NCBI GenBank assembly: GCA_023457325.1
Contig: JAEWLX010000045.1
Coordinates: forward strand, 1 to 39,267
Length of the DNA: 39,267 bases
From: Bacillota bacterium
Lineage (GTDB): Bacteria; Bacillota_I; Bacilli_A; RFN20; CAG-826
Reading direction: 5' to 3'
In this document: piece after piece, positions 5,098-23,715 of the stretch
Position numbering within the stretch: the stretch's first letter is position 1
Layout: every line of letters begins with the position of its first letter
Position numbers and translations under genes: made by a program
The notes under the pieces: generated by a model
Told to the model about the DNA's origin: nothing
The model's input: the letters and a program-made list of their open reading frames with translations, nothing else
Database searches by the model: none

Positions 5098-5140
5098 GCA
5101 AATATCCCTTTTTTATTGTAATACTCGCCTTTTTTAATAA

Positions 5141-5180
5141 AAAGAAAAATAAAAGGATTGCCCATAATTCGAGCAACCCT
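5141..5180 (-). terminator. Rho-independent terminator ending the long purine-catabolism operon
   Basis: The minus-strand RNA has AGGGUUGC-11 nt loop-GCAAUCCU (8 bp including one G-U) followed by UUUAUUUUUCUUUUU, 20 nt after the ygeW-like stop. Confidence 0.65.
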
Positions 5181-5199
5181 TAAAGAATTTCAATGTCGA

Positions 5200-6210
5200 C
5201 TACTTATCGCCCATCGTCATTGCCATAACAGCTTTGGCGGTGTGAAGACGGTTTTCCGCTTCTTGATAAACAATTGAGTGAGGACCATCGATAACTGAAT
5301 CTTCAACTTCGTTACCACGATCAGCCGGAAGAGCGTGCATGTATTTTACATTCGGGCTGGCGAGTTTAATCATCTCTTCAGTACATTTCCAGCCTTTAAG
5401 CGTTTTGATGTAATCATCGACGACAACGGTTGATTGGTTTTTAACCCAGCTTCCCCAGTTCTTAGGAATAACAACATCCGCATCTTTAAAGGCTTCCTTC
5501 ATATCGTGTGTGATACGGAAGGAACCACCATTTTCTTCAGCGTTTTTCTTTGCCTTTTCGATAGCCCAATCCGGAAGATCATAACCTTCAGGATACGCGA
5601 GAGTTACATCCATGGCGTAGCGTGGGAATAATAAAATTTGTGAAAGAGGAACACTGATTGGTTTTTTGTGACTTTCAGCATACGCCCAAATAATCGAAAT
5701 TTTGAGACGTTTGGTCGTTGGAAATACTTCTTGAATGGTCATTAAATCAGCTAGAGCTTGCATCGGGTGATATAAATCACATTGCAAGTTCATAATCGGG
5801 ACAGTTGAATTAGCAGCCATTTCGCGAATATATTTATTGCCAACGCCATAGTTGCAATAACGGCAAGCGATGCCGTGTCCAAACGAGGACAAGATAACGG
5901 CAGTGTCTTTCGCGCTTTCACCGTGGGAAATTTGCATCATCGAGGTATCAAGAAACGTCGCGTGCCCGCCAAGTTGGGCTAGGCCAGATTCCATCGAGTT
6001 TCTCGTTCTTGTTGATTGTTCAAAGAACATTAAGAAACCAGTTTTATTCTCGAGATATGGCGTAGGAATGTTTTTATAAAATTTGTTTTTCAAATCATAA
6101 GATACTTCTAGTAACTTATCAATTTCTTCCTTTGTCCATTCTTCAAGAGTGATAAAGTGACGACCTTTGAAGAGTGGTTTCATTGTGCGTTTGTAGAATA
6201 GTTTACTCAT
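5200..6210 (-). CDS. ygeW: YgeW-family (knotted) carbamoyltransferase
   Basis: STRTR carbamoyl-phosphate motif, NLQCDLYHPMQALADL, IIWAYAESHKKPISVP, MDVTLAYPEGYDL, GGSFRITHDMKEAFKDADVV and YMHALPAD closely parallel E. coli YgeW as I recall it. It lies directly next to ygeY. At 336 aa it is shorter than E. coli YgeW. Confidence 0.85.
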   Translation of the reverse strand: MSKLFYKRTMKPLFKGRHFITLEEWTKEEIDKLLEVSYDLKNKFYKNIPTPYLENKTGFLMFFEQSTRTRNSMESGLAQLGGHATFLDTSMMQISHGESAKDTAVILSSFGHGIACRYCNYGVGNKYIREMAANSTVPIMNLQCDLYHPMQALADLMTIQEVFPTTKRLKISIIWAYAESHKKPISVPLSQILLFPRYAMDVTLAYPEGYDLPDWAIEKAKKNAEENGGSFRITHDMKEAFKDADVVIPKNWGSWVKNQSTVVVDDYIKTLKGWKCTEEMIKLASPNVKYMHALPADRGNEVEDSVIDGPHSIVYQEAENRLHTAKAVMAMTMGDK

Positions 6211-6221
6211 TAATTTTCTCC

Positions 6222-7439
6222 TTATTTTTTAAGTTGGCTCAAATACATCAATGGTATGGCGGCATAAAGCGCAGCTGCGATAACGAGATCTTCTTTTCTC
6301 GTTTTTTCGTTTGGAGCATGTGCTTCCTTTTCGTCACCGGGCCCAAAGCCGATGCATGGGATGCCATAACGACCCATAATGGTTACACCATTTGTCGAGA
6401 ATGTCCATTTGTCAACAACCGGATCCTTTTTAAATAGACCCTTATAAGCTTCAACTGTGGAAGAACAAATAACATGACTCTCGGGTATAACCCAAGTCGG
6501 GAAATAACACTCGGTTGGGTAAACTAGACCCGTCCATGACGGGCGTTCATACATGTACATTTCAACGGTGGCACCGGCGGCTTTAACCGAGGGTAAAGCG
6601 CGGATTTCATCAAGAGCGCCTAAATGCGTCTCGCCCATCGTCAAACGGCGGTCAATCGAGATCCAACAACTATCAGCAACCGCACAACGTGATGGCGAAG
6701 TATGGAAAATTTCGCTAATCGTCATTGTTCCTTTGCCGAGGAAAGGATCGTCTTTCAACCGTTCATTGAGTTCTTTGATTTCGCCAATAATTGGGCCCAT
6801 CTTATAAATGGCATTATCGCCTCTTTCGGGGGCGCTACCATGACAAGAGATGCCACGTGTCGTTACTTTGATTTCCATTCTTCCGCGATGCCCGCGATAA
6901 ATGCGGCAGGAAGTTGGCTCTGTAATAACGACGAATTCAGGGCGAACTTTATCTTCTTCAATGATGTATTGCCACGGAATTCCGTCACAATCTTCTTCTT
7001 GGACAGTTCCGGTAACAACTAATGTGTAATCATCTTCAAGACCTAAGTCTTTAATAATTTTGCCAGCGTAAACCATCGAAGCCATTCCGCCTTCTTGGTC
7101 GCTTGCGCCACGTCCACCAATGTGAACATCGTCTTCATATCCTTTATAAGGATCAAAGGTCCAGTTGCGAATATCGCCGATGCCAACTGTATCAATATGG
7201 GCGTCCATTCCGATGAGGTGTTTTCCATGGCCAATGTAACCGAGAATATTACCCATCTTGTCGATGACAACGCGGTCGAAACCAACCTTTTCCATCTCTT
7301 CTTTAATGCGATGAATAACTTCTTTTTCCTGGCATGACTCGCTTGGAAGCGAAATCATGTCGCGAAGAAAAGCGGTCATTTCCTTTTTGTAAGATTCAGC
7401 TTTTTTTAAAATTTCACTAAACGGAACGACTTTACTCAT
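6222..7439 (-). CDS. ygeY: YgeY-family M20 peptidase/amidohydrolase ('selenium metabolism-linked hydrolase')
   Basis: 405 aa. Long stretches recall E. coli YgeY ([94 protein letters not shown]). ATGA overlap with the upstream gene. Confidence 0.9.
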
Positions 7440-8803
7440 AATGTTTTTCCTCTCATTTTCTTAATTTTTTCGTCATATTCATGAACCTTGTTATACTCGA
7501 TTTCCCAGAAATCTGGTTTTCTCATCGCATCTAGATATGCTTGGGAATATCCAAACTTCAGCCAATCGCTTTCCTTTTGTTTAAAAAGGCGCTCTTTGAC
7601 TTTTGGTAAACGAGCATCTTCAATATGTTCATCTCTTGCGCCAAGGAAGATATCCTTGTACCAACGTTCCATGACATAGTCGGCTGTCTCAAGCTCGCGC
7701 TTTTCGAGAAGTTCAAGAACGCTTTCATAGCGATCGTAACCATCGGTAGCAATTGTGACAACATTATCGCCAGGACCGAGTCTCAGGTGTTTTGCCATTT
7801 TAATTGCACCTAGAATATTACAAATACCGGAGACACCAAATAGCTCGCGCATTTCTTCAGCGACTTTTTTGTCGACACCATGACGAACTAATACATCCGT
7901 GCCATCATGAATGATTTTAAGACCGCGAACAGACTCATCATCATTAATTAAAGCGATGAAATCAGTCGTTAAAATATTGTGAATGAGAGTACACATCTTG
8001 TCACCGATACCTTCAATGCGATGTTGTCCTCTACCTCCGTTAGTTAATGTTGAACATTCATATGGTTCGAGCGCGGCGATTTTACATTCAGGAAATACTT
8101 TTTTAATCGCATCGCCAGCAGCAAGTGTGCCTGCGCTTCCGGGAGCGGAGGCAAAACAAGCAATCCGACCATTGCCAACACCTTCGACAGCTTCAACACA
8201 ACTATTACCAGTTACGTGGCGATGGAAACGATAGTTTGGCATCAATTCAAACTGGGCTAATGTCCGGTAATTGGGATTCTTTTTTAATTCGTAAGTTCTT
8301 TCAAGAGTCAAAATAACATCCGATTCTGAACCAGGAGTCAAATCTAACTTGGCACCGTAGCGTTGAATGCGATCATAACGCTCTTTTGACATATTGTCAG
8401 GCATGATTACTATCGCATCATATTTCATCAAGTTTGCGATGTAGGAAACACCAATACCAAAGTTTCCGGTTGATGGGCCTAAAATGGTGTGTTTTCCGGG
8501 AATGATGTCGCCATCAATACATCCTTCAATTAGGGTTGAATATGCCGGACCGACTTTGTGCGAACCCGACGGAAATTGTTTTCCTAAAAGCACAACGATG
8601 TTAGCTTCAACACCCGTTAAAGCTTTGGGGAGAACGATTTTGCGAACTTGACCCTTATCATCTTTCCAGTTGATGTTAAAAAGATTGATCGGATCGAGTT
8701 CGTCCGCATCTTTAGCTTTTAAAGCTTGAGCGCGGACTTTGGGATCAATGTGATTGGGATGAAGCATCTCGTCATACGTTGGTCCAAATGGGATTTTTGT
8801 CAT
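7436..8803 (-). CDS. Fold-type-II PLP enzyme, cysteine-synthase/OrtB-like ('PLP-dependent lyase/thiolase'), 455 aa
   Basis: Candidate PLP-lysine region [13 protein letters not shown] and glycine-rich loop [13 protein letters not shown]. It has N- and C-terminal extensions relative to ~310-aa cysteine synthases. The exact subfamily is not resolvable by eye. Confidence 0.7.
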
Positions 8804-8805
8804 TT

Positions 8806-10050
8806 CTAATTGACTCCTTTTTCTTTTAAATACTTATGTAGGGCCTCGATATCAGGCTTTAGAAGGACGGGTTGGCTAATTGCCTTTTGTGCATTAGTCG
8901 GGTCTTTCAAACCATTGCCAGTGACGATAAACGTCACAGATTCATCAGGTTTGATTAAACCAATATTTAGAGCTTCTTGGACACCTGCTAGGGCTGTGAC
9001 CCCTGCTGGTTCTCCAAAAATGCCTTCCAGGCGCCCTAAAAGCGCCATACTCTCTAGTATATACTTATCGCTGACACTTATGAAGTGCCCCCCACTTAAT
9101 TTAATAGCATTCATTGCTTTATTGGGGTTACGAGGAATGCCTACCGCAATCGAATCGGCGATTGTATTCTCATCAGCCTCTTTTAAGTTTTCGTTATTTT
9201 CATAAGCCGTCACAAAGGGGGCGCAGCCCGAACTTTGCACACCGAGAATGCGCGGAATGCGTTCAATCAAGCCCAGTTTTAGCAAGTCATAAAAGCCTTT
9301 GTACACGCCACCGACACTACATCCATCACCAACCGAAATAGCAACCCAATCTGTCGGTTTAAAATCCAACTGTTCAGCAATTTCTAAAGCGACAGTTTTT
9401 TTACCTTCAACAAGATGAGAGTTAATGGCGGCATTACGATTATACCAATGGTATGTTTCGATAGCCTTGCGCGACAAATTGTACGTATCTTTATAATCAC
9501 CATCGACACAAATGACCGTGGCGCCATAAATAGATAATTGGGTTAGTTTGCCAATCGGAGCTCTTTTTGGAACAAAAATAACACTTTTTAAACCCATGTG
9601 GGCTGCTTGACAAGCCAAACTCGAAGCGGCGTTGCCGGTTGAAGAACAGGATATCGTTTTTGCTCCCGCTTCTATCGCTTTTAAAACAGCGACACCGCTG
9701 GCGCGATCTTTTGTTGATCCGCTTGGATTTAAGCCTTCATCTTTAATATAAAGATTCTTAACACCTAAATACTGAGCAAGTCTTTTTGATTTGTATAAAG
9801 GTGTCCAACCAATACGCAACATCTCGTGGATGTGTTCGGAAGGAATACTCATCATCGGGGCATAGCGCCACATCGAATAATCGTGATTGTTTTTGAAATA
9901 ATCAAGGTTGACAGTCTCTTTTAGTTTTTCATAGTCATATTCAACATCGAGAATGCCTTTGTCACCACAATGGGGGCATGTATAAATCGCTTCCTCTGGT
10001 GAATAAGTGCGACCGCATATCGTGCACCGATAGTCTTTGAATTTTTGCAT
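8806..10050 (-). CDS. Threonine-synthase-like fold-type-II PLP enzyme with N-terminal zinc ribbon, 414 aa
   Basis: CTICGRTYSPEEAIYTCPHCG Cys4 ribbon, PLP-lysine motif NPSGSTKDRAS, SSTGNAASSLA loop. The start is set at MQKFKDYRC (ATG 10050, GAAGGTGA SD) because the track start at 10146 would overlap the upstream FAD-subunit gene by 83 nt. Confidence 0.75.
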   Translation of the reverse strand: MQKFKDYRCTICGRTYSPEEAIYTCPHCGDKGILDVEYDYEKLKETVNLDYFKNNHDYSMWRYAPMMSIPSEHIHEMLRIGWTPLYKSKRLAQYLGVKNLYIKDEGLNPSGSTKDRASGVAVLKAIEAGAKTISCSSTGNAASSLACQAAHMGLKSVIFVPKRAPIGKLTQLSIYGATVICVDGDYKDTYNLSRKAIETYHWYNRNAAINSHLVEGKKTVALEIAEQLDFKPTDWVAISVGDGCSVGGVYKGFYDLLKLGLIERIPRILGVQSSGCAPFVTAYENNENLKEADENTIADSIAVGIPRNPNKAMNAIKLSGGHFISVSDKYILESMALLGRLEGIFGEPAGVTALAGVQEALNIGLIKPDESVTFIVTGNGLKDPTNAQKAISQPVLLKPDIEALHKYLKEKGVN

Positions 10051-10063
10051 TATTTCACCTTCT

Positions 10064-10912
10064 TTATTTAATTCCCTTAATGAACATCGACATAATATTT
10101 GCGCATACTTTCCGCCGATATTGTTTATTCGAACGCTGATCATCAATTGGTGAAATCATTTTATCAGTCTCTTCTAAAATACGCGGCAAATCGCTGATAA
10201 TATCTTCAATTGGGCGGTTTTTGAGTGAATTTTCGAGGGATATGCTTCGAGCGACCATTGCTGCAACTGAGCCAAAAGCCATCCGTATATCTGAAACTAA
10301 TCCAAAGTTGGTAAGATACATTCCCGCAAAGGAAACCTTACTAATTGAGTCGGCTCTTCTTCCGCCGACCTTGACCCACTTATAATTAGTTAGAGGAACG
10401 AGCGGAATAATAATCTCCTTAATTAGTTCATTGCTGTGAAGATCAATGCGGCGAACGCCAATAATGAAATCTTTAACTAATAGGGTTCGCTCTTCTTCAA
10501 TACTTTTCAAAACAACCTTAGCATCGAATAAATATAAAGCGAGAAGGCTATCACCAGCAGGTGAGGCATTGGCGATGTTACCCGCTAATGTAGCGCTATG
10601 GCGAATACCCGGGCTTCCGATTTCCTTGATGATGTCACGAAGAAGATTGGGAACGATTTCACTTCTTAAAATGTCTTCCAGCTTTGTCGTTGCGCCGATA
10701 TGAACAAACTTCTTGTCTTCACTTAACTTAATATAATTAAGTTCATCGACATTTGCCATATAAAGAACATCCTTCGTAAATTTAGGAGGCGTGCCTGCCG
10801 AAGATCTTTTTTGAATCATTAAATCAGTTCCACCCGCCATAATGTGAAGTGGACCTTCATTTAAATGTTCTAGTGCTTCCTGGAGATTATTTGGAATAAT
10901 ATGTTTTACCAT
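10064..10912 (-). CDS. Molybdenum hydroxylase (xanthine dehydrogenase family) FAD-binding subunit, set 1
   Basis: 282 aa with AGGTDL FAD motif and TLAGNIANASPAGD. CoxM/XdhB-like, adjacent to the 2Fe-2S and Mo subunits. Confidence 0.85.
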   Translation of the reverse strand: MVKHIIPNNLQEALEHLNEGPLHIMAGGTDLMIQKRSSAGTPPKFTKDVLYMANVDELNYIKLSEDKKFVHIGATTKLEDILRSEIVPNLLRDIIKEIGSPGIRHSATLAGNIANASPAGDSLLALYLFDAKVVLKSIEEERTLLVKDFIIGVRRIDLHSNELIKEIIIPLVPLTNYKWVKVGGRRADSISKVSFAGMYLTNFGLVSDIRMAFGSVAAMVARSISLENSLKNRPIEDIISDLPRILEETDKMISPIDDQRSNKQYRRKVCANIMSMFIKGIK

Positions 10913-11379
10913 AATCCTTCTCCTAACTTAGCAGCCAACTTAACTGCCTTGATTATCATGTTGTAACCAGTGCATCGACACAGATTACCAGAAAGACCTA
11001 TGCGAATTTCTTCATCGGTTGGATGAGGGTTTTGCGATAAGAGACTCTCGGCGGCCATAATCATGCCCGGGGTACAAATTCCACATTGCGACCCGCCCTC
11101 AAAATGCAAAGCATCTTTTAATATTTGATAACGTTTCGTGAGGGCTAAGCCTTCGATTGTTAAAATCGTTTTGCAATTGGCGTTGGCGAGGGGGAAACAG
11201 CAACTATTAACAACTTTCCCGTTTACTAAAACGGAACACGCACCACATTCGCCTTCCCCACATCCTTCTTTTGTGCCGGTTAAATGAAAATGGTCGCGAA
11301 GGACATCGAGCAAGCGCAAACTTGGATCAAGATCCATTTCCACTTTTTGATTGTTTAATACAAATTTAATCTTGTTCAT
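10906..11379 (-). CDS. Molybdenum hydroxylase [2Fe-2S] subunit, set 1
   Basis: CGEGECGACSV (plant-type cluster) plus QCGICTPG...NLCRCTGY (second cluster). 157 aa. Confidence 0.9.
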   Translation of the reverse strand: MNKIKFVLNNQKVEMDLDPSLRLLDVLRDHFHLTGTKEGCGEGECGACSVLVNGKVVNSCCFPLANANCKTILTIEGLALTKRYQILKDALHFEGGSQCGICTPGMIMAAESLLSQNPHPTDEEIRIGLSGNLCRCTGYNMIIKAVKLAAKLGEGLW

Positions 11380-13465
11380 CTTTTAATAACTCCATGATGT
11401 ATTCTGGTGTGGCAGGAATTCGATTCACTTTGCGTTTAATCGCGTTTTCTATTGCTAAGGCAACAGCTGGGGCTCCACCAACTAGTGTTAGTTCTCCTAC
11501 TCCTTTAGCGCCATACGGACCATAGGGGAAAGGATTATCCATTATTATCGTTTCCATATTTGGCATGTCCATTGAAGTCGGAATAATATAATCCGTCAAA
11601 TTCTTTTGTCTGAGTTTGCCTTTTTCGTGGCGCATTATTTCTAAATAGCCGTAGGCAACTCCTTGAGTAATTCCTCCATCTGCTTGGCCGATAACCATTC
11701 TTTCATCGATGGCTTTACCAACATCATAAACACTCCAAATGCCTTTCAGTTCGACTTCATAAGTAATGGGCGAAACTTCGACTTCAACTATGTTGACACC
11801 CCATGAATAGGCTGGATAGGCATCGCCGTGAAGAGCGTGTTCATCCCATTTAATAAAATCGGGCTGTTGATATTTTTCAATTATTTCCTGGCATTGGCCA
11901 GACTTCCATTCATCTTTTAATTTTTTGGCGGCTCTTGCTAATAATCCGCCAACAATCATCGTGGTTCTAGAGGCAACAGTCGGACCAGAATCAGGTGCAA
12001 AGTCGGTATCAGGATTATCAAAGATAACTTGATCATTATCAACGTCTAAAGTCATGGCGACAATGCGTTTGAGTGAGGTTTTAGCCCCTTGCCCCATATC
12101 AACGGCAGCGATATAAACGTGGACGATATCTTTTTCGTCTTTTACTAATCTTACGCGTGACTTAATGTGCGTGCTTTCGCCATCGCCAGTAAATCCACAG
12201 CCATGGAGAAACCAGCTCATGCCAATGCCTTTAAATACTCCTGGTTTAGCGTATTCTTTTGTCTTGCGATGATAATCGGATATCTCCGTTGCTTTGGCTA
12301 TCATTTTATCCATAATAATCGGATCCCGGAAAGTACCGCTTGTCGATGTCTTATCGCCTTGCTTAACCAAATGATTAATTCTGAATTGGTAAGGATCGAC
12401 ACCTATGTCTTTGGCAATGTGATTCATAAACATCTCAATGGCATAAATCATCTGCGGTGATCCAAAACCACGGAAAGCTCCGGTCGGTACAGTGTTGGTA
12501 ATATAGACGTCGCCACTGACATCGAGATTATCAATCGTGTAGGCGTTCGTAACCGCAAGCATTGAGCGGGACAAAACAACACCACTTAGCCCAACATATG
12601 CTCCGCCATCAAGGGAGACATGGGCTTTAATGGCAAGGATATGATTATTGTCATCGAGCATAGCTTCCATCGTTATTTCTGATGGATGACGCTTTGTCGT
12701 AACGAGCATATCTTCTTCGCGCTCAAAAATCATTTTGATTGGTTTTTTAATTTTGACAACAGCTGTCGCTAGCTGGCATGCCGTTGTAGAGGGGAATTCT
12801 TCTTTGCCGCCAAAGGCGCCGCCAACGGCAGGTTGCAAAACCCGCACTTTGTCCTCGGGATAACCCAAAGTATTAATAACGGCATTCTTAATATAATAAG
12901 GGCACTGCATTGAACCAATAAGTGTAACTTTACCGCCTTCATCCAAATAAGCAAGCATCCCCTGCGGTTCAATGTATGCTTGTTCTTGATAGCCAGTATA
13001 ATAAGTTTCTTTGATTGTTCGCTTTGCCTTTTTAGAAGCTTTTAAATAGTCGCCTTTTGCAAACGATTTATGAACAAAACTGTTCACGTAATCAAATACA
13101 GCTTCTTCTTCCTGATAATCGATTTTAATATTTGCTATGATGTCATCGATAACCTTCTTATCGGGTCCGACAACTAGTGCGATTGGTTCGCCAATATAAT
13201 TGACCTTGTCGACAGCAAAGACGGGCCAGTCAGCAAAGATCATTTTGACATAGTTTTCTTTGATAACATCTCGGTGGTCGACATAAAAGTATCCATCAGG
13301 CATTTTTGGAATCTGAATCGAAAGGATTTTGCCTCTCGCAATTGATGAACGGACTGTTTTGGCAAATAACATATCGTCGAAAACGATGTCCGAAACATAT
13401 TTTGCTTGTCCAGAACACTTTTCTTCGTGGTCGACTTTTGGTGTTGATTTCTTCGGATCGAACAT
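11366..13465 (-). CDS. Molybdenum hydroxylase molybdopterin-binding subunit, set 1 (xanthine-dehydrogenase-like active-site residues)
   Basis: 699 aa. It carries GGAFGGKEE (Glu after GGK as in bovine XDH Glu802), AFRGFGSPQ (Arg880 equivalent) and AKGVGELTL (catalytic Glu). Confidence 0.9.
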   Translation of the reverse strand: MFDPKKSTPKVDHEEKCSGQAKYVSDIVFDDMLFAKTVRSSIARGKILSIQIPKMPDGYFYVDHRDVIKENYVKMIFADWPVFAVDKVNYIGEPIALVVGPDKKVIDDIIANIKIDYQEEEAVFDYVNSFVHKSFAKGDYLKASKKAKRTIKETYYTGYQEQAYIEPQGMLAYLDEGGKVTLIGSMQCPYYIKNAVINTLGYPEDKVRVLQPAVGGAFGGKEEFPSTTACQLATAVVKIKKPIKMIFEREEDMLVTTKRHPSEITMEAMLDDNNHILAIKAHVSLDGGAYVGLSGVVLSRSMLAVTNAYTIDNLDVSGDVYITNTVPTGAFRGFGSPQMIYAIEMFMNHIAKDIGVDPYQFRINHLVKQGDKTSTSGTFRDPIIMDKMIAKATEISDYHRKTKEYAKPGVFKGIGMSWFLHGCGFTGDGESTHIKSRVRLVKDEKDIVHVYIAAVDMGQGAKTSLKRIVAMTLDVDNDQVIFDNPDTDFAPDSGPTVASRTTMIVGGLLARAAKKLKDEWKSGQCQEIIEKYQQPDFIKWDEHALHGDAYPAYSWGVNIVEVEVSPITYEVELKGIWSVYDVGKAIDERMVIGQADGGITQGVAYGYLEIMRHEKGKLRQKNLTDYIIPTSMDMPNMETIIMDNPFPYGPYGAKGVGELTLVGGAPAVALAIENAIKRKVNRIPATPEYIMELLKDEQD

Positions 13466-13468
13466 TAC

Positions 13469-15861: not shown

Positions 15862-17165
15862 TCGATATCACGTCCTTTAATCCATTTGCCTTGTCCGCCC
15901 TGATAAACACGATTTCGAATAACAAAATGGCCACGAACCATGGTTGAGATAACTTGTCCATGTGAAGGCTGGCCGATATAAAGTGAATAATCGGCATGGC
16001 CGTGTTGATCAAGGATTAGACTTCGTGCTTCAGGTTTAAAAATAACTAGGTCGGCGTTATTACCAACTTTAATCTCGCCTTTTCCATCTAAACCTTGAAT
16101 CCGAGCAATATTACTTGTCATCTTATTAATTACAGAATCACCGAGATGATGACGCATAATTGTAAATGAGTGTTCAATCCCGCCAATACCTAACGGCATT
16201 TCGAAAAGCATTTTGCCTTTTTTGTCGGCGATATTAAAAGCACAATGGTCGGTGCCAATCGTATCGATGTGCTTTTGGTTCGTAAATAGTAATTTACGGG
16301 AAACAAAGCTTCTCAAAGGTGGGGCAAAAGAATATAAATAACCGTCTTCGCGTTCCAAAGCATCGTGGGTAAAAGTGAAATATTGAGGACAACTCTCGAT
16401 GAAGAAACGCTTATTGAGAATATCTCCATAATTTTCAATAAGGGCTTCAAGAGTGTGGCCGTCACTAAGATGAACCATGTAAAGCTTCCCGCCATGCTGG
16501 CGAACAAGTTCGGCGAGTTTTAGCGCTTCGCTTTTTTCGGCTTCTGATGAACGGCTGATTGGTAAATCTTGATAAGTAAAGTCCTTCTTCACAACTATCA
16601 GGTCATCGTTTTCAACATGGGCTAATAAAAGAAATTTATATTTCTTTGATAATTCAAGGAGCTTAATAATATCTTTTTCATAAGTCCGGCGGCCAGAGTC
16701 AGAATAAGTCGTGAACAACTTTAATGTATGTATATCTAAACTTTTCATTTTTTTGACGAATTCTTCTAAATCGCCCGTCGGATTTTTAATACAGGCATGA
16801 AGACGAAAATCAATGACGGACTTACTCGCTAACGCAATGCGTTTATCATAGGCAAGTTGCAGTTCATCGGCGTTACTAGCAGGATCAAGAAAATCGACAA
16901 TCGAAGTGACTCCGCCATAGGCGGCAGCCACCGTCCCGTGATAGAAATCATCCACGGATTTATATTTACCTAAATCGAGTTCAAAGTGTACGTGAGGATC
17001 AATGATACCCGGTAGAACTTCAAGTCCTTCGGCATCGACAACTTGTGAGGCATCCAAAAAGTCATCGCTTATTAAGGCAATTTTTCCTTTTTTGATATAG
17101 AGATTGTGTGTTTCCCAGTGACCATTGATGTAGAGTAGGCCGTTCATAATTGCATAATCGTACAT
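15858..17165 (-). CDS. hyuA: Cyclic amidohydrolase, hydantoinase/dihydropyrimidinase family (HyuA-like)
   Basis: DPHVHF metal motif, TLKLFTTY (candidate carbamylated Lys), LLAHVEND, GTDHCAF. 435 aa. ATGA-type overlap with ssnA. Confidence 0.8.
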   Translation of the reverse strand: MYDYAIMNGLLYINGHWETHNLYIKKGKIALISDDFLDASQVVDAEGLEVLPGIIDPHVHFELDLGKYKSVDDFYHGTVAAAYGGVTSIVDFLDPASNADELQLAYDKRIALASKSVIDFRLHACIKNPTGDLEEFVKKMKSLDIHTLKLFTTYSDSGRRTYEKDIIKLLELSKKYKFLLLAHVENDDLIVVKKDFTYQDLPISRSSEAEKSEALKLAELVRQHGGKLYMVHLSDGHTLEALIENYGDILNKRFFIESCPQYFTFTHDALEREDGYLYSFAPPLRSFVSRKLLFTNQKHIDTIGTDHCAFNIADKKGKMLFEMPLGIGGIEHSFTIMRHHLGDSVINKMTSNIARIQGLDGKGEIKVGNNADLVIFKPEARSLILDQHGHADYSLYIGQPSHGQVISTMVRGHFVIRNRVYQGGQGKWIKGRDIE

Positions 17166-17169
17166 GATT

Positions 17170-17655
17170 CTACTCCTCTCCTGGAACTTTTATAAGTTCA
17201 TAATCGCTAATAGCGAAGTGTGTGGTAACGGGTTTAACAAGATCTTCGCGGACAGCAATGACAAGGTCGAGTCCGCTTACTAAGACTTTTTTGAGGATGT
17301 TATGGTAGCCTCCTCCCATAATTTCAAGAACGCCAACTTCATCAAGATAAATAGGCATTACTTTCTTTTCGATGAATTCATCAACAACGCTTTCAAGCAA
17401 GGACAATAAGTTTAAATTCAAGTAGAAGGGTCCGAACTTACTGCTATGAGTGAAATCTTGATGGTAATGGTTTTGATAAATCATCCAAGGAATGGTGTTG
17501 CTATTGCTGAGGCGAAGCATAATGTAACCGTAAACTTCCTTGCCCTTCATCTTTTTAATGGCGGCAAAGCCGTCACCAATTAGATTCTTTCGATACTCAT
17601 TAATGAGAGTCGTGGTTTTACCGGCATTAATTTTTCCAGCAATGATTTTAACCAT
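17170..17655 (-). CDS. P-loop NTPase, THEP1/NTPase_1-like (161 aa)
   Basis: Walker A GKINAGKTT and Walker B IYLDEVGVLE. The start is set at MVKIIAGK (ATG 17655) because the longer track ORF would overlap the upstream membrane-protein gene. Confidence 0.6.
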   Translation of the reverse strand: MVKIIAGKINAGKTTTLINEYRKNLIGDGFAAIKKMKGKEVYGYIMLRLSNSNTIPWMIYQNHYHQDFTHSSKFGPFYLNLNLLSLLESVVDEFIEKKVMPIYLDEVGVLEIMGGGYHNILKKVLVSGLDLVIAVREDLVKPVTTHFAISDYELIKVPGEE

Positions 17656-17707
17656 TAAGAGCCTTTCTAATTGTGATGCTTGCCACCATGAAACAAAGTA
17701 TGTTCCC

Positions 17708-18397: not shown

Positions 18398-18409
18398 AAC
18401 AATACTCCT

Positions 18410-20719
18410 TTATTTTCCTTTGTTGAGCCCCTGAAATATTTTTTCAGGAGTAACCGGCAATTTATTGATTCGCACGCCGGTTGCGTTTGCGACTGCGTTA
18501 GCAATTGCAGCTGGAGGCGTGTCAATACCGATTTCACCAACCGACTTCGCGCCATACGGTCCGCTTTCCTCAAAACTTTCCGCGAACTCAGTCGTTAGTT
18601 TCTTAACGTCGAGCATCGATGGAATTTTATAGTAGAGGAAGCTGTTGCTATTTAGCTTTCCGCGGTTGCTGTATTTTACGTCTTCAAAACAAGCCATGCC
18701 TAAACCTTGTACAATTCCACCTTCAACTTGTCCTTTGGCGAGCATTGGATTAATCGTTACACCGCAGTCGACGACACTGACATAATGAAGAATGTCATAT
18801 TCGCCAGTCTCGGTGTCGAGTTCAATTTCGACATATCCCGCCATAAATGGCGGAGGTGATTTATGACCAACATAGCTTTCAGTCGCTGTCAGTTGATGTT
18901 GATTTTCATTGTAATAAAGGCGGTTAGCCAAATCAGAAAGGGTTAAGACCTTGTCTTTGCTAGTAAATTTTTCACCGTCAAAAACAACTTCTTCTTCTTT
19001 TGAATTTAAATAGTTAGCCGCTTCTTTAATTAGCATGCTTTTCATCTTCAAGGCCGCCTTTAATGCGGCATTGCCAGAAACATAGGTTGTGCTTGAAGCA
19101 TAGGCACCGACATCAAATGGAGTTAAATCGGTATCAGATGAATAAATAATTACTTTATCAACAGAGGTCATTAAAGCCTCGGCAACGATTTGCGTGATGA
19201 CGGTATCACTTCCCTGGCCGATATCAGTTGCGCCAACAGTAAGGTTATAGAATCCGTCGTCGTTGAGTTTAATCGTAGCAGCAGCCATATCGATATAAGG
19301 AATGCCACTTCCTTGCATCGCAATCGCCATGCCAACAGCGCGAACTTTATTTGGACCAACTTTAACAAATGGATATTTATCCTTCCAGCCAATTAATTCC
19401 GCACCACGATCGAGGCAATAACGAAGTTTACACGTATCCATATCCATGGCTGTGCCTTCTGTGCCCTCGCCCATGATAGCAAAGATTGGACTTGTCTCGC
19501 CTTCTTCCATCATATTTTTACGACGGAGTTCAAGCGGATCAATATTTAATCTTTTGGCGAGAACGTCAATGGCTGATTCGAGAGCAAAGTTGCCTTGAAT
19601 CGCTCCATATCCGCGATAGGCACCGGCTGAAACGTGGTTAGTGTAAACGACACGCCCACCAAAGCGAACGGCATCAACTTTATTATAAAGTGGCAAGACC
19701 TTTGAACCAGTAATCATGAAGACGGTTAAAGCGTGTTCTCCATAAGCTCCGGTATCAGACAAACTATAACAATCAATGGCCTTTAAAGTACCGTCTTTCA
19801 TCGCGCCTAAACGCATTCTAATTCGCATAGGATGACGGGTGTAGGAAGATTCAAAAACTTCCTGACGTGAGTAAATCATCTTTGATGGCTTTTTCGTTTT
19901 TAAAGTAACAAGCGAGACAAAGAATTCACCATGAATAGCCTGTTTGCCACCAAAACCACCGCCCACTCTTGGCTTGATAACGCGAATCTTGCTAATCGGC
20001 ATATCAAGTGTTTGTGAAATAATCCTTCTAACATGATATGGCGTTTGCGTGGCCGTATAAATGACGAGCCGATTATGATAATCGAGTCTTGCATTAGCGG
20101 TGTGAGGCTCTAGCATCGCATGAGCTTGGGCCTGCGTGTAATAAGTTTCGTCAATTACGACATCACATTTAGATAAGGCATCTTCGACATCGCCGACGTG
20201 CATGTCATAGGCGGCAGCGACGTTTTTCTTGGGTTCAAAACCGATTGGAAACATCTCGTGAATGCCGTCCTCAGGATGAATGATATTTTTGTTTTCATAG
20301 GCAGTCTCGTAATCCAAGACAGGTTCAAGAACTTCGTATTCGACTTCAATAAGTTTTAAGGCTTGATCGGCGATAGATTCATTAATGGCTGCCACGCAAG
20401 CGACTTCGTCACCAACGTAACGAACATACTCATCTAAAATAAACTTATCGTGGGGAGATGGTTCGGGATAACCCTGCCCAGCTCTCGTAAAAGATTTGCG
20501 AGGTACATCGTGATGGGTTAAAACGACTTCCACACCAGTTAAGTCTTTAGCCTTTGATACATCAATTTTCTTAATCTTAGCAAAAGCATGTGGACTTCTT
20601 AAAACCTTGACAATTAAAGAATTGGCCTCAGCAAGATCATCCGTAAAGGCCGGACGACCCATCATGATTCCTTTACCGTCAACTGAAGGCGTTTTTTGAT
20701 TTACAACTTTTGTTTTCAT
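18410..20719 (-). CDS. Molybdenum hydroxylase molybdopterin-binding subunit, set 2 (XdhD/XdhA-like)
   Basis: 769 aa. It carries GGGFGGKQA (Gln in place of the XDH Glu802 equivalent), AYRGYGAIQ (Arg retained) and AKSVGEIGI (catalytic Glu). Confidence 0.9.
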   Translation of the reverse strand: MKTKVVNQKTPSVDGKGIMMGRPAFTDDLAEANSLIVKVLRSPHAFAKIKKIDVSKAKDLTGVEVVLTHHDVPRKSFTRAGQGYPEPSPHDKFILDEYVRYVGDEVACVAAINESIADQALKLIEVEYEVLEPVLDYETAYENKNIIHPEDGIHEMFPIGFEPKKNVAAAYDMHVGDVEDALSKCDVVIDETYYTQAQAHAMLEPHTANARLDYHNRLVIYTATQTPYHVRRIISQTLDMPISKIRVIKPRVGGGFGGKQAIHGEFFVSLVTLKTKKPSKMIYSRQEVFESSYTRHPMRIRMRLGAMKDGTLKAIDCYSLSDTGAYGEHALTVFMITGSKVLPLYNKVDAVRFGGRVVYTNHVSAGAYRGYGAIQGNFALESAIDVLAKRLNIDPLELRRKNMMEEGETSPIFAIMGEGTEGTAMDMDTCKLRYCLDRGAELIGWKDKYPFVKVGPNKVRAVGMAIAMQGSGIPYIDMAAATIKLNDDGFYNLTVGATDIGQGSDTVITQIVAEALMTSVDKVIIYSSDTDLTPFDVGAYASSTTYVSGNAALKAALKMKSMLIKEAANYLNSKEEEVVFDGEKFTSKDKVLTLSDLANRLYYNENQHQLTATESYVGHKSPPPFMAGYVEIELDTETGEYDILHYVSVVDCGVTINPMLAKGQVEGGIVQGLGMACFEDVKYSNRGKLNSNSFLYYKIPSMLDVKKLTTEFAESFEESGPYGAKSVGEIGIDTPPAAIANAVANATGVRINKLPVTPEKIFQGLNKGK

Positions 20720-21168
20720 TTATGAGCCTCCAAATATTTTTTAATCGCTTTAAACTGAGATTGATAACCCGAGCAGCGGCATAAATTGCCAGCGACAAAG
20801 TGCTTAATATCCTCATCAGTCGGATTGTTAAGTTCTTTTCTTAGGGCGAGGATGGTAAGAGCAAGACCAGTATTACAAAAACCGCATTGATCAGCGCCTT
20901 CGTCCGCAAAGAAATCACTAATCTCATCAACTTCATCTTGTAATGCTTCCACGGTTGTGACATTTCTTCCTTCCACTCTCGCGGACAAAAATGAACAGGA
21001 CAATATTGGGCGTCCGTCTAATAAGACGGTGCACGCTCCGCAGGCTGCTTCGTCACAAGCTTTTTTGACTGATAAAACGGAATGGCTTCTTAAAGTATCA
21101 GCTAGATATTCTCCGGGAGTGATGTCGTAGCTAACATAACGACCATTTAGATTAAAGTTAACTTTCAT
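20716..21168 (-). CDS. Molybdenum hydroxylase [2Fe-2S] subunit, set 2
   Basis: CDEAACGACTV, QCGFCNTG and NLCRCSGY. 150 aa. 4-nt overlap with the Mo subunit gene. Confidence 0.9.
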   Translation of the reverse strand: MKVNFNLNGRYVSYDITPGEYLADTLRSHSVLSVKKACDEAACGACTVLLDGRPILSCSFLSARVEGRNVTTVEALQDEVDEISDFFADEGADQCGFCNTGLALTILALRKELNNPTDEDIKHFVAGNLCRCSGYQSQFKAIKKYLEAHK

Positions 21169-21962
21169 TATTTGCTAACCTCCTCAAGACCACGTTTGAC
21201 ATAGGCTTTTGCCAAAGCTTTGCGATACTCAGCGCTGGCAGCACCTGTCGAAGCGTAAAGAAGTTCTTCAGAGGCAAGTTCAGCGGCCTTATTTATAAGT
21301 TCATTAGAAAGATTCTTGGCATTATTAACTACTTCCATTGATTTAGATGCTAATGAGGCGACAGAAGGACGACTGCCTATCGCTATGCGATACTTGCCAT
21401 CAATATTAGCGATGGCCACATTAACGACAGCAAAATCAAGAGCGGTTGTTTTGACTTTTTTAAAGAAGGAAGGACCTTGGCTTTTTTTAATGACAATATG
21501 TGTCAAAATATCGCTCAAACGTCCTTTAAAGCTTAAAAAATCGTTAAGCGTCATTTCCTTGTGCGGATAAAAGACGAGTTTTGTCTCAAGTGCCAATAAG
21601 GGAGTAATAATATCAGAAAAGGGAAATCTACCAGCGACCGAACCACCGATTGTCGCACTATTGCGAAAGGCAACACCCATGATTTGGCTTACCGCTTCAA
21701 TCAAGATGCCTCCTTGAATATTTTTAAGTAACGGACTCAGTTCAAAATCTCTAAGGCTGACCATAGCTCCAACTTCGACTGTGTCACCAAGATCTTTGAT
21801 GGTATCAAGTCCAAGAGCGCTTAAATCAACTAAGGTGTTTGCAGAAGAAGTTGACTTCTTAAGCCAAAGACCACCGCCCAACAAAACGTTTTTTGCATCT
21901 TGAAGCAAGATTTGGTGAGCTTCTTCAAGGGTCGCGGGTCGTAAGTAGCGATTTGCTTCCAT
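21168..21962 (-). CDS. Molybdenum hydroxylase FAD-binding subunit, set 2 (YgfM-like short form)
   Basis: 264 aa. FRNSATIGGSVAGRFPFSDIITPLLALETKLVF resembles the CoxM/YgfM FAD domain. The usual AGGT(D/N)L motif is degenerate (LGGGLWL). Confidence 0.8.
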   Translation of the reverse strand: MEANRYLRPATLEEAHQILLQDAKNVLLGGGLWLKKSTSSANTLVDLSALGLDTIKDLGDTVEVGAMVSLRDFELSPLLKNIQGGILIEAVSQIMGVAFRNSATIGGSVAGRFPFSDIITPLLALETKLVFYPHKEMTLNDFLSFKGRLSDILTHIVIKKSQGPSFFKKVKTTALDFAVVNVAIANIDGKYRIAIGSRPSVASLASKSMEVVNNAKNLSNELINKAAELASEELLYASTGAASAEYRKALAKAYVKRGLEEVSK

Positions 21963-21981
21963 GTTTGTTTCCTTTCTTTAT

Positions 21982-22530
21982 TTATAATTTTTGATAGTCA
22001 CGAGGGGTATCGATGTCCATCAAAATTTGTGAATCCTCTGTCTTGATTATTTCATAATCGTGTCGATTGCGAAATAGTTTCAGGTTCGAAGTTACTGGCT
22101 CATTAAGCAATTCATCTTTAATAGAATGCTTAATAAAGAGTGGGTGACCAGTTCGATTTTGATAGACTGGGACACGCATTTCTTTGCTCCCCAAAAGCAA
22201 TTTTTGATACGTGTCGCCGCTTACAAAGGGACAATCTCCCGGAAGAATAAAAAAATCGCCCTTCGTTTTACGAACACCGGCTTGAACGGAACTAAACATT
22301 CCTTTCGAATAGTCGGAATTATAAACGATGGTGACCTTTGAATATGATTTTAGGGCCTCTTTAACTTCTTCGTGATAGTGCCCAGTCACAACGATAACTT
22401 CATCAACAAAGGGGAGCATTCCTTCAACGGCATGGGCAATTAAAAACCTTCCCTTGTGAGTTAATAGCATTTTATTCGTCTCGGCTCGGCTGGAGTAGCC
22501 GGCCGCTAGGATAATCCCTTGGGTCATCAA
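21982..22530 (-). CDS. mocA: Molybdenum cofactor cytidylyltransferase (MocA/YgfJ-like nucleotidyltransferase)
   Basis: N-terminal GIILAAGYSSR nucleotidyltransferase motif and PGDCPF. 182 aa. It is the first gene of the Mo-enzyme operon, with AAGGAG SD. Confidence 0.8.
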   Translation of the reverse strand: MMTQGIILAAGYSSRAETNKMLLTHKGRFLIAHAVEGMLPFVDEVIVVTGHYHEEVKEALKSYSKVTIVYNSDYSKGMFSSVQAGVRKTKGDFFILPGDCPFVSGDTYQKLLLGSKEMRVPVYQNRTGHPLFIKHSIKDELLNEPVTSNLKLFRNRHDYEIIKTEDSQILMDIDTPRDYQKL

Positions 22531-22621
22531 GTTTACTCCTTGTTTTAATACCAGTTATGATGATTCAACAATGTTGTATTCATCAAACTGTGAAATCTAT
22601 CGAGGTGTTTACAACAACTAA

Positions 22622-22650
22622 ATTATAAATGGTGAGCGCTTTCATTGCAA
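22622..22650 (-). promoter_or_regulatory. SigA-type promoter of the purine-catabolism operon: TTGCAA-17 nt-TATAAT
   Basis: The reverse complement of 22622-22650 reads TTGCAA TGAAAGCGCTCACCATT TATAAT. This leaves an ~84-nt leader before mocA. Confidence 0.6.
22631..22644 (-). promoter_or_regulatory. cre (CcpA catabolite-responsive element) inside the promoter spacer: TGAAAGCGCTCACC
   Basis: Matches the cre consensus TGWAANCGNTNWCA at every specified position except the last. It starts immediately after the -35 hexamer. Confidence 0.55.
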
Positions 22651-22724
22651 ACGCGTATTTGTGTCACACCCGCCTACCACTCGCTCGATTCCAAATGCGA
22701 AACCAAGAAGAGTATCTCATTCCG

Positions 22725-22753
22725 TTGTTGTCGTTTTTAAGAAGGCGTATAAT
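22725..22753 (+). promoter_or_regulatory. SigA-type promoter of the carbamate kinase gene: TTGTTG-17 nt-TATAAT
   Basis: 22725-22730 = TTGTTG and 22748-22753 = TATAAT with a 17-nt spacer, 41 nt upstream of the ATG. Confidence 0.5.
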
Positions 22754-22794
22754 GTTAATGTTGTGCACATTATTCGTGCAAAAAGGAAATAAAT

Positions 22795-23715
22795 ATGAGT
22801 AGATATGTCGTCTCACTAGGGGGCAACGCCCTCGGAAACAATGCCGAAGAACAAAAAAGACTATTAATCAATGTAGCCACGCCAATTGTGGCTTTGATTA
22901 AAGCTGGACATGAAGTAATTATTGTCCACGGAAATGGGCCACAAGTCGGTATGATTAATCTGGCTTTCGCTGAATCGAAATCGACTCCGGATATGCCTTT
23001 TCCAGAATGTGGAGCAATGAGCCAAGGCTACATTGGTTTTCACTTGCAAAACGCGATATTTAACGAACTTGCAAAGCAAAACGTCGATAAGCACGTGGCA
23101 ACAATTGTCACTCAAGTCGTTGTCGACGCAAATGATCCTCTCTTTTTAAACCCTACGAAACCAGTCGGTGCTTTTTATAGTCAAGAAGAAGCAGAAATCA
23201 TCGCTTTGGAAAAAGGCTATACGATGAAAGAAGATAGTGGGCGTGGCTATCGCCGCGTTGTCGCTTCTCCCTTACCAATTGATGTCGTAGAAAAGGACAT
23301 GATACTCAGTTTACTTAAAGACAAACATGTTGTTATTTGTGCCGGCGGCGGAGGTATTCCCGTCATTAGAAAAGGACAGCATTTGGAAGGAATCGCCGCT
23401 GTCATCGATAAAGACTATGCCAGTGCGAAAGTTGCCGCTCTTGTCGATGCCGATTATTTAGTCATTTTAACTGCTGTTGATAATGCCTATATTAACTATA
23501 AAAAACCAGGCGAAAAAAGACTTGAAAAAGTCACAATGAGTGAAATTGAAAAATACGCTGAAGAGGGTTTCTTTGCCAAAGGAAGTATGTATCCAAAAGT
23601 TCAAGCGTGTTTAATGTTATTAAAAGCTAAAAAAGGTAAAACAGCTATTATCACGTCTCTTGAAAAAGCACAGGAAGCCTTTGTTGAAAAGGTCGGTACA
23701 ATCATTAAATCTTAG
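22795..23715 (+). CDS. yqeA: Carbamate kinase (YqeA/ArcC type)
   Basis: SLGGNALG, HGNGPQVGMINLAF, LNPTKPVG, EDSGRGYRRVVASP, GGGGIPV, AVIDKDYASA and FAKGSMYPKV are classic carbamate kinase motifs, very close to E. coli YqeA as recalled. Confidence 0.92.
   Translation: MSRYVVSLGGNALGNNAEEQKRLLINVATPIVALIKAGHEVIIVHGNGPQVGMINLAFAESKSTPDMPFPECGAMSQGYIGFHLQNAIFNELAKQNVDKHVATIVTQVVVDANDPLFLNPTKPVGAFYSQEEAEIIALEKGYTMKEDSGRGYRRVVASPLPIDVVEKDMILSLLKDKHVVICAGGGGIPVIRKGQHLEGIAAVIDKDYASAKVAALVDADYLVILTAVDNAYINYKKPGEKRLEKVTMSEIEKYAEEGFFAKGSMYPKVQACLMLLKAKKGKTAIITSLEKAQEAFVEKVGTIIKS

Follow-up and report, generated by a model that had tools for sequence, protein, structure and literature searches.

The closest described relatives of the locus reported here are the gene clusters of the reductive uricolytic (2,8-dioxopurine) pathway, which was reconstituted in vitro from urate through to pyruvate in 2025 (10.1101/2025.04.24.650524; 10.1101/2025.05.19.654654; commentary PMC12990295), and whose chemistry is established for Escherichia coli, Clostridium sporogenes, and Clostridioides difficile. 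According to these studies, urate is converted to 2,8-dioxopurine by XdhD/YgfM, or by XdhAC in C. sporogenes, and 2,8-dioxopurine is then dearomatised by YgfK, a step for which the PydA-like flavoenzyme UacX has been proposed in C. difficile (10.1101/2025.05.19.654654). The two rings are opened by SsnA and HyuA to give 2,3-diureidopropionate, one ureido group is phosphorolysed by YgeW with formation of ATP by carbamate kinase, the other is hydrolysed by YgeY, and the resulting 2,3-diaminopropionate (DAP) is converted to pyruvate by YgeX. Current interest in the pathway concerns probiotics against gout and its use as a marker for the turnover of purines in the microbiomes of gut and sediment. 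Here, we describe a 16-gene operon in a 39,267-nt stretch of DNA from a Bacillota bacterium (positions 1 to 39,267 of contig JAEWLX010000045.1, assembly GCA_023457325.1; hereafter the window), which appears to encode this pathway with two pyridoxal phosphate (PLP) enzymes in the place of YgeX. A preliminary description of the same DNA had regarded the chemical steps as only partly assigned, a view that the 2025 reconstitution has overtaken.

Gene content and proposed pathway of the operon

The operon comprises 16 co-directional minus-strand genes between positions 5200 and 22527 (Table 1), as taken from the list of open reading frames (ORFs) and from gene calls on public contigs with identical proteins, and the intergenic distances within it range from -14 to +52 bp. 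Its existence at this place is confirmed, and its gene arrangement, which recurs in the same order across dozens of species-level genomes, greatly exceeds what chance would give. The 16 packed genes, the promoter-like site, and the terminator listed in the preliminary description are all present as ORF calls or pattern matches, and the gene order given there proved correct in NCBIfam and Pfam scans and in blastp comparisons with the E. coli K-12 cluster. Likewise, the divergent gene beside the promoter, described as a YqeA-type carbamate kinase, scores above the arcC cut-off. The placing of the operon in the anaerobic purine/urate class (ygeW-ygeY-hyuA-ssnA-xdh type) is borne out by family scans, blastp, and synteny, and a tblastn search of the window with the E. 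coli proteins agrees with the statement that the gene complement departs from the E. coli layout.

We consider it likely, with a probability of about 0.7, that this operon encodes a self-contained fermentation of purine bases that needs no oxygen and follows the reductive uricolytic pathway, with a pair of PLP enzymes replacing YgeX. In this scheme, a first molybdenum hydroxylase (set 1, with molybdenum, 2Fe-2S, and flavin adenine dinucleotide subunits Mo1, FeS1, and FAD1) would oxidise hypoxanthine and xanthine to urate, and a second one (set 2; Mo2, FeS2, and FAD2), as a split XdhD-YgfM, would take the 6-oxo group off urate to give 2,8-dioxopurine, with MocA supplying the cytidine-dinucleotide form of the molybdenum cofactor. 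The PydA-like UacX would reduce 2,8-dioxopurine instead of YgfK, SsnA and then HyuA would open the two rings to give 2,3-diureidopropionate, and the short YgeW-like carbamoyltransferase would cleave off one ureido group with phosphate, the carbamoyl phosphate being used for ATP formation by the divergent carbamate kinase. YgeY would hydrolyse the remaining ureido group to leave DAP, and the ThrC-like PLP1 and the CysK-like PLP2 would together replace the DAP ammonia-lyase YgeX, so that the three-carbon unit enters central metabolism as pyruvate or via L-serine. Since the oxidation of hypoxanthine yields four electrons and the conversion of urate to the dearomatised ring uses four, the presence of both hydroxylases in one operon would make the process redox-neutral.

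Assignment of the upper-pathway enzymes

When aligned with bovine xanthine oxidase (chain C) by phmmer, Mo1 was found to keep all six catalytic residues (E802, R880, F914, F1009, T1010, and E1261) as well as R912. At the bovine xanthine-oxidase sites, Mo2 carries Q, Y, and I-P, the same residues as in E. coli XdhD, and these two proteins have a common insertion containing a glutamate that aligns with XdhD E606, the residue singled out by Li et al. (10.1101/2025.05.19.654654). Taken together with the match between FAD2 and YgfM, the active-site residues lead us to read set 1 as probably a xanthine dehydrogenase, with hypoxanthine and xanthine as the predicted substrates, and set 2 as the predicted urate reductase, which would be a three-subunit, split equivalent of XdhD/YgfM that forms 2,8-dioxopurine from urate. 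Mo2 scores 563 against the TIGR03313 cut-off of 1102 because its Fe-S domain is encoded by a separate gene, and some of its relatives bear the source annotation "putative selenate reductase", the old name of XdhD. The reverse arrangement, in which Mo1 would be the urate reductase, was considered as well, since Mo1 adjoins UacX in the ±10 kb loci centred on PLP2 that are described below; it was rejected on the active-site residues, and the caveats are the same as for the preferred assignment.

The flavoprotein that had earlier been called PreA-like is predicted to be a UacX that replaces YgfK, its likeness to the C. difficile enzyme being one of described architecture, namely a DHO_dh domain with two 4Fe-4S motifs (10.1101/2025.05.19.654654). 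In one related locus (L077), a YgfK gene (41% identity to E. coli) is located in the slot of UacX, and this, together with the architecture, makes the missing ygfK a known substitution. The SsnA-like protein next to it, which has SsnA as its best family but scores below the cut-off of that model, would correspond to the marker enzyme of the reductive uricolytic cluster in Li et al. (10.1101/2025.05.19.654654).

Apart from ygfK, the preliminary description had reported ygeX, yqeB/yqeC, a purine permease, and a cluster regulator as missing. When the full 39 kb was searched by tblastn with the E. coli proteins, ygeX, yqeB, yqeC, ygeV, xanQ, ghxQ, and uacT gave no match, and no orthologue of ygfK was found, the one local match (149 residues, E = 1.7e-4) being inside the UacX gene. 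Family scans of the larger remaining ORFs of the window did not find these genes either, and the sole regulator that they revealed is a TetR-family gene far from the cluster. The absence from the window of ygeX, yqeB/yqeC, a permease, and a cluster regulator therefore stands, the lack of ygfK is to be taken as the known UacX substitution, and close relatives of the operon do carry an XdhC/YqeB-like gene.

As for the carbamoyltransferase, its score against the ornithine carbamoyltransferase (OTCase) model stays below the cut-off (264.5 against 280.85 bits), as do its scores against the YgeW models TIGR03316 and NF005538 (193 and 209 bits, with cut-offs of 500 and 453). Alignment to PDB 3Q98 showed that the protein is without the YgeW insertions, which gives it 336 residues instead of the 390-400 of the full YgeW architecture, and that the YgeW-specific second-substrate-domain motifs NLQCDxxHP, WAYxxSxxKPxSVP, MDVTLAxPEGYDL, and ALPAD are common to both; no ornithine SMG loop (DxxxSMG) was found in the same alignment. 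By its motifs, then, the protein is a short YgeW-like enzyme and not an OTCase of the arginine pathway. The name YgeW that it was first given holds as far as the motifs are concerned, though for a shortened relative with 39% identity and a score under the YgeW cut-off.

The cluster in other genomes

When one genome per species was scanned with the CysK-like PLP2, at least 571 stretches matched, and the locus counts given in this text refer to the best 80 of these, each covering ±10 kb around PLP2. Across orders, the best 80 PLP2 orthologues are 75-93% identical, and the loci come from uncultured Bacilli, Izemoplasmatales, rumen metagenome-assembled genomes (MAGs) labelled Erysipelotrichaceae, and two complete Mycoplasmatota genomes. 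Tabulation of tblastn matches and ORFs revealed that the order HyuA-SsnA-UacX-Mo1-FeS1-FAD1-PLP1-PLP2-YgeY-carbamoyltransferase recurs in most of the 80 loci, with matches for PLP1 and YgeY in 74 loci each, for the carbamoyltransferase in 68, and for YgeX in none. Moreover, by way of Mo2 homologues, the entire operon (MocA-FAD2-FeS2-Mo2-membrane protein-XdhC-like-NTPase-HyuA and onward) was recovered on Izemoplasmatales/Tenericutes contigs, relative to which the window is missing only the XdhC-like gene and an adenine deaminase. The version of the pathway with the PLP pair is that of the recovered loci of Izemoplasmatales, Acholeplasmataceae-labelled, and rumen Bacilli MAGs.

The adenine deaminase (570 aa) is found between FAD1 and the ThrC-like gene in 29 loci, these being Izemoplasmatales versions (e.g. 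L066:7044-8759), and guanine-deaminase-like genes adjoin the cluster in other loci, both of which tie the cluster to purines. This bears on the alternative that UacX, the HyuA-like hydrolase, and YgeY serve not for urate but for the degradation of pyrimidines along a reductive route of the Pyd type, or of a different N-heterocycle, for instance nicotinate. Such substrates would suit the PydA-like character of UacX, the dihydropyrimidinase model that is the best one for the HyuA-like protein, and the resemblance of Mo1 to nicotinate dehydrogenase, which is about equal to that with xanthine oxidase. Nonetheless, the embedded adenine deaminase, the swap of UacX for YgfK in L077, the xanthine-specific E802, R880, and T1010 retained in Mo1, and the uricolysis marker set made up of SsnA, YgeY (73% identity), the YgeW-like enzyme, and carbamate kinase leave this alternative highly improbable.

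The PLP genes also accompany other variants of the cluster. A true YgeW (~67% identity to E. coli) is encoded in two loci, one with both PLP genes (L082) and one on a contig that ends after PLP2 (L087), both PLP1 and PLP2 are kept in the YgfK variant (L077), and yqeB and yqeC are present along with the PLP genes on an unrelated Clostridia contig (L060). In many Izemoplasmatales versions, the carbamoyltransferase gene is immediately followed by genes for a cytidine/dCMP-type deaminase and a LigT-like phosphoesterase (L096:21385-22322). Three loci binned as Gemmiger formicilis, Coriobacteriaceae, and Lachnospiraceae (L012, L023, and L041) show the rumen-Bacilli form of the cluster with a PLP2 that is 78-80% identical to that of the window, which points to mis-binning or recent transfer. 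Among cultured strains, a cluster of Xianfuyuplasma coldseepsis zrk13 (G4Z02_01105-01195) that includes "cysteine synthase" and "threonine synthase" genes was co-induced by thiosulfate and in situ (PMC8397711), and a similar one of Hujiaoplasma nucleasis zrk29 (HF295_00920-01005) was induced by DNA/RNA (PMC10470597).

Two PLP enzymes at the position of YgeX

No YgeX match was obtained within 10 kb of PLP2 in the 80 loci or in the 39 kb window. Of the two PLP enzymes, PLP1 shows 24% identity to E. coli YgeX (E = 6e-10), and PLP2 matches it over 70 residues only. In the L082 locus, PLP2 comes directly after ygeW, which is the position of ygeX in E. coli. YgeX is apparently replaced by the ThrC-like and CysK-like enzymes, in what would be an undescribed substitution. 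We found no mention of the pair in the papers on the reductive uricolytic pathway that were consulted, and in the neighbourhood analysis of Li et al. YgeX was scored simply as PF00291 (10.1101/2025.05.19.654654), a family that covers both PLP proteins of the window as well.

In four solved ThrC structures, S155, R160, and N188 (T. thermophilus numbering) are invariant, and we take these three residues to be those that bind the substrate phosphate; in all 74 PLP1 orthologues, the corresponding residues are A, L or M, and D. A ThrC-like partner protein from a non-purine locus retains the arginine at the R160 position. PLP2 has the PLP lysine, the Asn-loop, and the glycine-loop motifs of the CysK superfamily, together with conserved N- and C-terminal extensions, and by sequence comparison it is a small separate family, with 107 representatives at E ≤ 1e-30 among 1.84 billion proteins and no matching NCBIfam model even when distant relatives are included. 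Its AlphaFold2 (AF2) model reached a predicted local distance difference test (pLDDT) score of 50, with a shallow alignment. The gene contexts of the distant PLP2 relatives are mixed. Two sister clades located outside purine clusters (44-45% identity; L088:3-1505 and L089:8644-9816) again adjoin a ThrC-like PALP gene, which suggests that PLP1 and PLP2 work as a unit, and pairing of a ThrC-like with a CysK-like enzyme may thus be of wider occurrence. A radical-SAM gene comes after one of these two sister-clade pairs. Separately, a PLP2 relative of 492 aa with ~31-36% identity (P0163 contig, JGI 3300042731) is encoded near a 401-aa carbamoyltransferase of YgeW size.

In the Izemoplasma papers, the cluster was assigned to "nucleotide and amino acid metabolism" (PMC8397711, PMC10470597), a reading in which one would regard the PLP genes and the genes named for OTCase and dihydroorotate dehydrogenase as ordinary amino-acid and pyrimidine biosynthetic genes lying among those for xanthine dehydrogenase. 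The top family names (threonine synthase, cysteine synthase, ornithine carbamoyltransferase, and dihydroorotate dehydrogenase) agree with this, PLP1 passes the TIGR00260 thrC model, and serA and serC adjoin the cluster. We nevertheless judge such a mixture of genes to be extremely unlikely, in that the three ThrC-invariant residues are changed in every one of the 74 PLP1 orthologues, PLP2 stays well under the cysK cut-off (133 against 351 bits), the carbamoyltransferase has YgeW motifs and no SMG loop, and the order PLP1-PLP2-YgeY-carbamoyltransferase is fixed across bacterial orders in an operon that also encodes SsnA, HyuA, and a pair of hydroxylases. Biosynthetic best homologues were what the preliminary description had named as speaking against a purine operon; biosynthetic names are nearly all below cut-off here, the exception being the ThrC-like protein with TIGR00260, which has lost the three ThrC residues. 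The automated names threonine synthase, cysteine synthase, and ornithine carbamoyltransferase are probably wrong for these genes.

With the upper pathway unchanged, the PLP pair could also provide a new ending in place of the one-step ammonia-lyase reaction, in which (D-)DAP would be turned into L-serine by stereoinversion and/or hydrolytic beta-replacement, and serine would pass to pyruvate through an Fe-S dehydratase, or into one-carbon metabolism. In 12 of the 14 loci of a rumen clade, the carbamoyltransferase gene is followed on the same strand, at a distance of 22-109 bp, by one for a fused Fe-S L-serine dehydratase (e.g. L055:13692-14915), and in L060 serine dehydratase beta and alpha genes come directly after PLP2, with a serine hydroxymethyltransferase gene adjoining PLP1 (4561-6167, 9511-10752); these neighbours weakly suggest that the pair yields L-serine rather than pyruvate directly. 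The ThrC and CysK families, moreover, perform beta-replacement or water addition, and two enzymes suit a two-step conversion better than they do a simple lyase. The invariant Asn of ThrC presumably helps to bind the substrate phosphate, and the Asp found instead in all 74 PLP1 orthologues, being acidic, would suit an ammonium leaving group. On the other side, the dehydratase is a neighbour in only two independent lineages, that of the rumen clade is followed by cysS, an rRNA methylase gene, and nusG and may simply be the next gene, and family scans of the window found no serine dehydratase. We know of no enzyme that converts DAP to serine, and regard a serine ending as tentative and rather unlikely.

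Much the same doubt attaches to the broader idea that the pair is an unrecognised two-enzyme module in place of the diaminopropionate ammonia-lyase, with new chemistry on D-2,3-diaminopropionate or a mono-ureido precursor and a serine-linked second ending. One possibility for this chemistry is stereoinversion together with a hydrolytic or sulfide-dependent beta-replacement that gives L-serine (or cysteine). If true, a serine-forming PLP module would constitute a second, serine-linked ending of the reductive purine pathway. It may be added that the zrk13 cluster with the same gene list is thiosulfate-induced (PMC8397711) and that PLP2 is CysK-like; a step that depends on sulfide or thiosulfate is conceivable.

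Accessory genes, operon ends, and flanking regions

Two genes between Mo2 and HyuA have less familiar products (Table 1). For the membrane protein, only 25 homologues were found, which are unnamed or hypothetical save for one labelled 'DMT-like permease' by JGI. Its AF2 model has a pLDDT of 86, and a Foldseek search with it gave no significant match, the weak hits being to RibU-like S components of energy-coupling factor transporters (TM 0.49/0.62, E = 1.4). The small NTPase was compared with YqeC as a possible diverged form, which was rejected, as hhalign gave a probability of 0.6% and matched the P-loop only. In relatives, an XdhC/CoxI-family (YqeB-like) chaperone gene of ~280 aa is located between these two genes (L096:12976-13821, L098:6298-7140, and L021:354-1190), and since only 52 bp are found there in the window (17656-17707), the XdhC-like gene has been lost in its lineage. 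Uptake of a substrate or cofactor and maturation of the hydroxylases are plausible guesses for the roles of the membrane protein and the NTPase.

The NTPase gene start was placed at 17655, and for the ThrC-like gene the start at 10050 (414 aa) was preferred over that of the longest ORF (8806-10146). The hairpin downstream of the operon has the longest stem among the 20 terminator-like matches of the scan. Neither pattern scan is significant alone, with 66 promoter-like sites observed against 45.8 expected and 20 terminator-like ones against 19.5, but the promoter-like site and the hairpin gain support from being located at the operon ends. An Rfam scan across the whole window gave no riboswitch or leader, and in the 267 bp divergent intergenic region we saw weak repeats and no convincing operator.

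Table 1. Features of the operon, its ends, and its surroundings, in order of position from the divergent kinase downward, followed by neighbouring genes.
Feature	Position	Strand	Length (aa)	Evidence or remark
Divergent carbamate kinase	22795-23715	+	306	arcC TIGR00746 379.8 bits (> 358.25); 53% to E. coli YqeA
Promoter-like site, TTGCAA-17-TATAAT	22622-22650	-		10/12 consensus matches (pattern scan); ~95 nt upstream of mocA start
MocA-like molybdenum-cofactor cytidylyltransferase	21982-22527	-	181	TIGR03310 143 bits (< 186 cut-off); 30% identity to E. coli MocA
FAD subunit, set 2 (FAD2), YgfM-like	21168-21962	-	264	best E. coli match YgfM (27%, 4e-14); Pfam FAD_binding_5 + CO_deh_flav_C
2Fe-2S subunit, set 2 (FeS2)	20716-21168	-	150	XdhC-type; counterpart of N-terminal Fe-S domain of XdhD (family scan, blastp)
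Mo subunit, set 2 (Mo2), XdhD type	18410-20719	-	769	best E. coli match XdhD (37%, 481 bits)
Membrane protein, 7 predicted helices	17708-18397	-	229	lineage-restricted; no Pfam/NCBIfam family
Small P-loop NTPase, NTPase_1/THEP1 family	17170-17655	-	161	PF03266 28.9 bits
HyuA-like cyclic amidohydrolase	15858-17165	-	435	TIGR02033 213 bits (< 393); 30% to E. coli HyuA; predicted hydantoin-ring opener
SsnA-like amidohydrolase	14557-15861	-	434	NF005540 364 bits (< 444), full length; 32% to E. coli SsnA; predicted six-membered-ring opener
UacX/PydA-like flavoenzyme	13469-14557	-	362	DHO_dh + Fer4 domains, two 4Fe-4S motifs; predicted 2,8-dioxopurine reductase
Mo subunit, set 1 (Mo1)	11366-13465	-	699	25% to XdhA; NCBIfam XDH-type matches all below cut-off
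2Fe-2S subunit, set 1 (FeS1)	10906-11379	-	157	pucE/XdhC-type matches
FAD subunit, set 1 (FAD1), XdhB-like	10064-10912	-	282	family scan, blastp
ThrC-like PLP enzyme (PLP1), N-terminal Zn-ribbon	8806-10050	-	414	TIGR00260 204.9 bits (> 167.1); NF006050 273.5 (< 303)
CysK-superfamily PLP enzyme (PLP2)	7436-8803	-	455	cysK 133 bits (< 351); best PDB match cysteine synthase, 1e-32
YgeY amidase	6222-7439	-	405	TIGR03526 698 bits (> 321.5); 73% to E. coli YgeY
Short YgeW-like carbamoyltransferase	5200-6210	-	336	39% to E. coli YgeW (blastp)
Terminator-like hairpin	5153-5181	-		12 bp stem, then T-run TTATTTTT; pattern scan
serA-serC-DUF1015-gdhA group	23784-28648	-		directly beside carbamate kinase
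Separate catabolic cluster	32920-39096	-		see text
TetR-family regulator	34527-35180			family scan

The flanking genes are unrelated to purines, with the serA-serC-DUF1015-gdhA group on one side and transporter and GNAT genes on the other. That genes of the serine pathway stand beside a cluster with a possible serine ending could be a coincidence. The G+C content is 34-36% to the left of the operon (window 1-5000) and 39-44% over the operon and the ser/gdh genes (5000-29000); this shift, taken with how very strongly YgeY and the CysK-like protein are conserved between phyla, would fit horizontal spread. Further on, a separate minus-strand cluster encodes an FGGY sugar kinase, the TetR regulator, a class II aldolase, a class III aminotransferase, a transaldolase/FSA, and an AcnX swivel-domain protein, and is probably a sugar or amino-sugar catabolic operon.

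Weight of the evidence and implications

Several points weigh against the reading of the operon as a complete reductive uricolytic pathway with a PLP pair for YgeX. Every enzymatic role in it is assigned from homology and gene order, the enzymes of this lineage being known from sequence alone. None of SsnA, HyuA, UacX, MocA, the two Mo subunits, and the carbamoyltransferase reaches its curated NCBIfam cut-off, and their substrates could therefore differ in detail. Active-site residues and similarity are all that divides the predicted roles of Mo1 and Mo2, and the best PDB matches of Mo1 include the selenium-dependent nicotinate dehydrogenase, whose group was placed nearest the C. sporogenes DOPDH by Liu et al. 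No transporter, regulator, or selenium-cofactor gene (yqeB, yqeC, selD) of the pathway lies in the window. Finally, the putative role of the PLP pair follows from its position and from the absence of YgeX within 10 kb, so that a ygeX elsewhere in the genomes is possible, and the scheme does not account for a need for two PLP enzymes.

The preliminary description had further supposed that the non-canonical gene complement might encode a variant route. This seems apt for the ending, where two PLP enzymes stand for YgeX, and the membrane protein and NTPase genes are indeed non-canonical; UacX and the split XdhD of set 2, by their sequence features, are substitutions already known or easily explained. 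The ending with two PLP enzymes leaves a well-defined gap, open to testing, in a pathway that is solved in all other respects. The variant may also be undercounted, as surveys query YgeX and YgfK, which are absent here, or count any PF00291 protein as YgeX. Among the organisms that carry it are DNA-degrading Izemoplasmatales in culture and many rumen MAGs, and as predicted it joins a xanthine dehydrogenase and a urate reductase in one operon and keeps the ATP-yielding step of carbamoyltransferase and kinase.

Comparison with described clusters

With the E. coli cluster (xdhD-ygfM, ygfK, ssnA, hyuA, ygeW, yqeA, ygeY, and ygeX; Liu et al., 2025; Li et al., 2025), the window has in common homologues of XdhD/YgfM, SsnA, HyuA, YgeW, YqeA, YgeY, and MocA, and it would follow the same logic, in that urate is reduced, both rings are opened, and one carbamoyl group is used to form ATP. 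In contrast to E. coli, YgfK, YgeX, YqeB/YqeC, YgeV, and permeases are missing from the window, the Fe-S and Mo parts of XdhD are encoded as subunits of their own, and the YgeW-like protein is 60 residues shorter, while the operon also holds the predicted xanthine dehydrogenase, the two PLP enzymes, the membrane protein, and the NTPase. YgeX/DpaL, the diaminopropionate ammonia-lyase, is a fold-type II PLP enzyme (PF00291) and the only PLP step of the canonical pathway. Its gene is located between ygeW and ygeY in E. coli, which is the position of the PLP pair in the window, though instead of one protein there are two, from the ThrC and CysK branches, respectively.

A closer resemblance at the dearomatising step is seen with the C. 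difficile cluster (UacX and UacY; Li et al., 2025), which, like the window, has a PydA-like flavin mononucleotide/4Fe-4S reductase instead of YgfK. However, C. difficile is without YgeW and carbamate kinase, using the hydrolase UacY, and without the YgfM FAD subunit, whereas in the window each of the two hydroxylases has an FAD subunit, and the carbamoyltransferase and kinase of the ATP-yielding step are retained. The same gene set as in the window is found in the clusters of zrk13 (G4Z02_01105-01195) and zrk29 (HF295_00920-01005), as judged from the gene lists of the two papers (PMC8397711, PMC10470597) and from Izemoplasmatales loci of the same order. Those lists name xanthine-dehydrogenase-related genes, adenine/guanine deaminase, NTPase, nucleotidyltransferase, aminohydrolase, "ornithine carbamoyltransferase", "cysteine synthase", and "threonine synthase". 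The two papers drew no link from the cluster to uricolysis.

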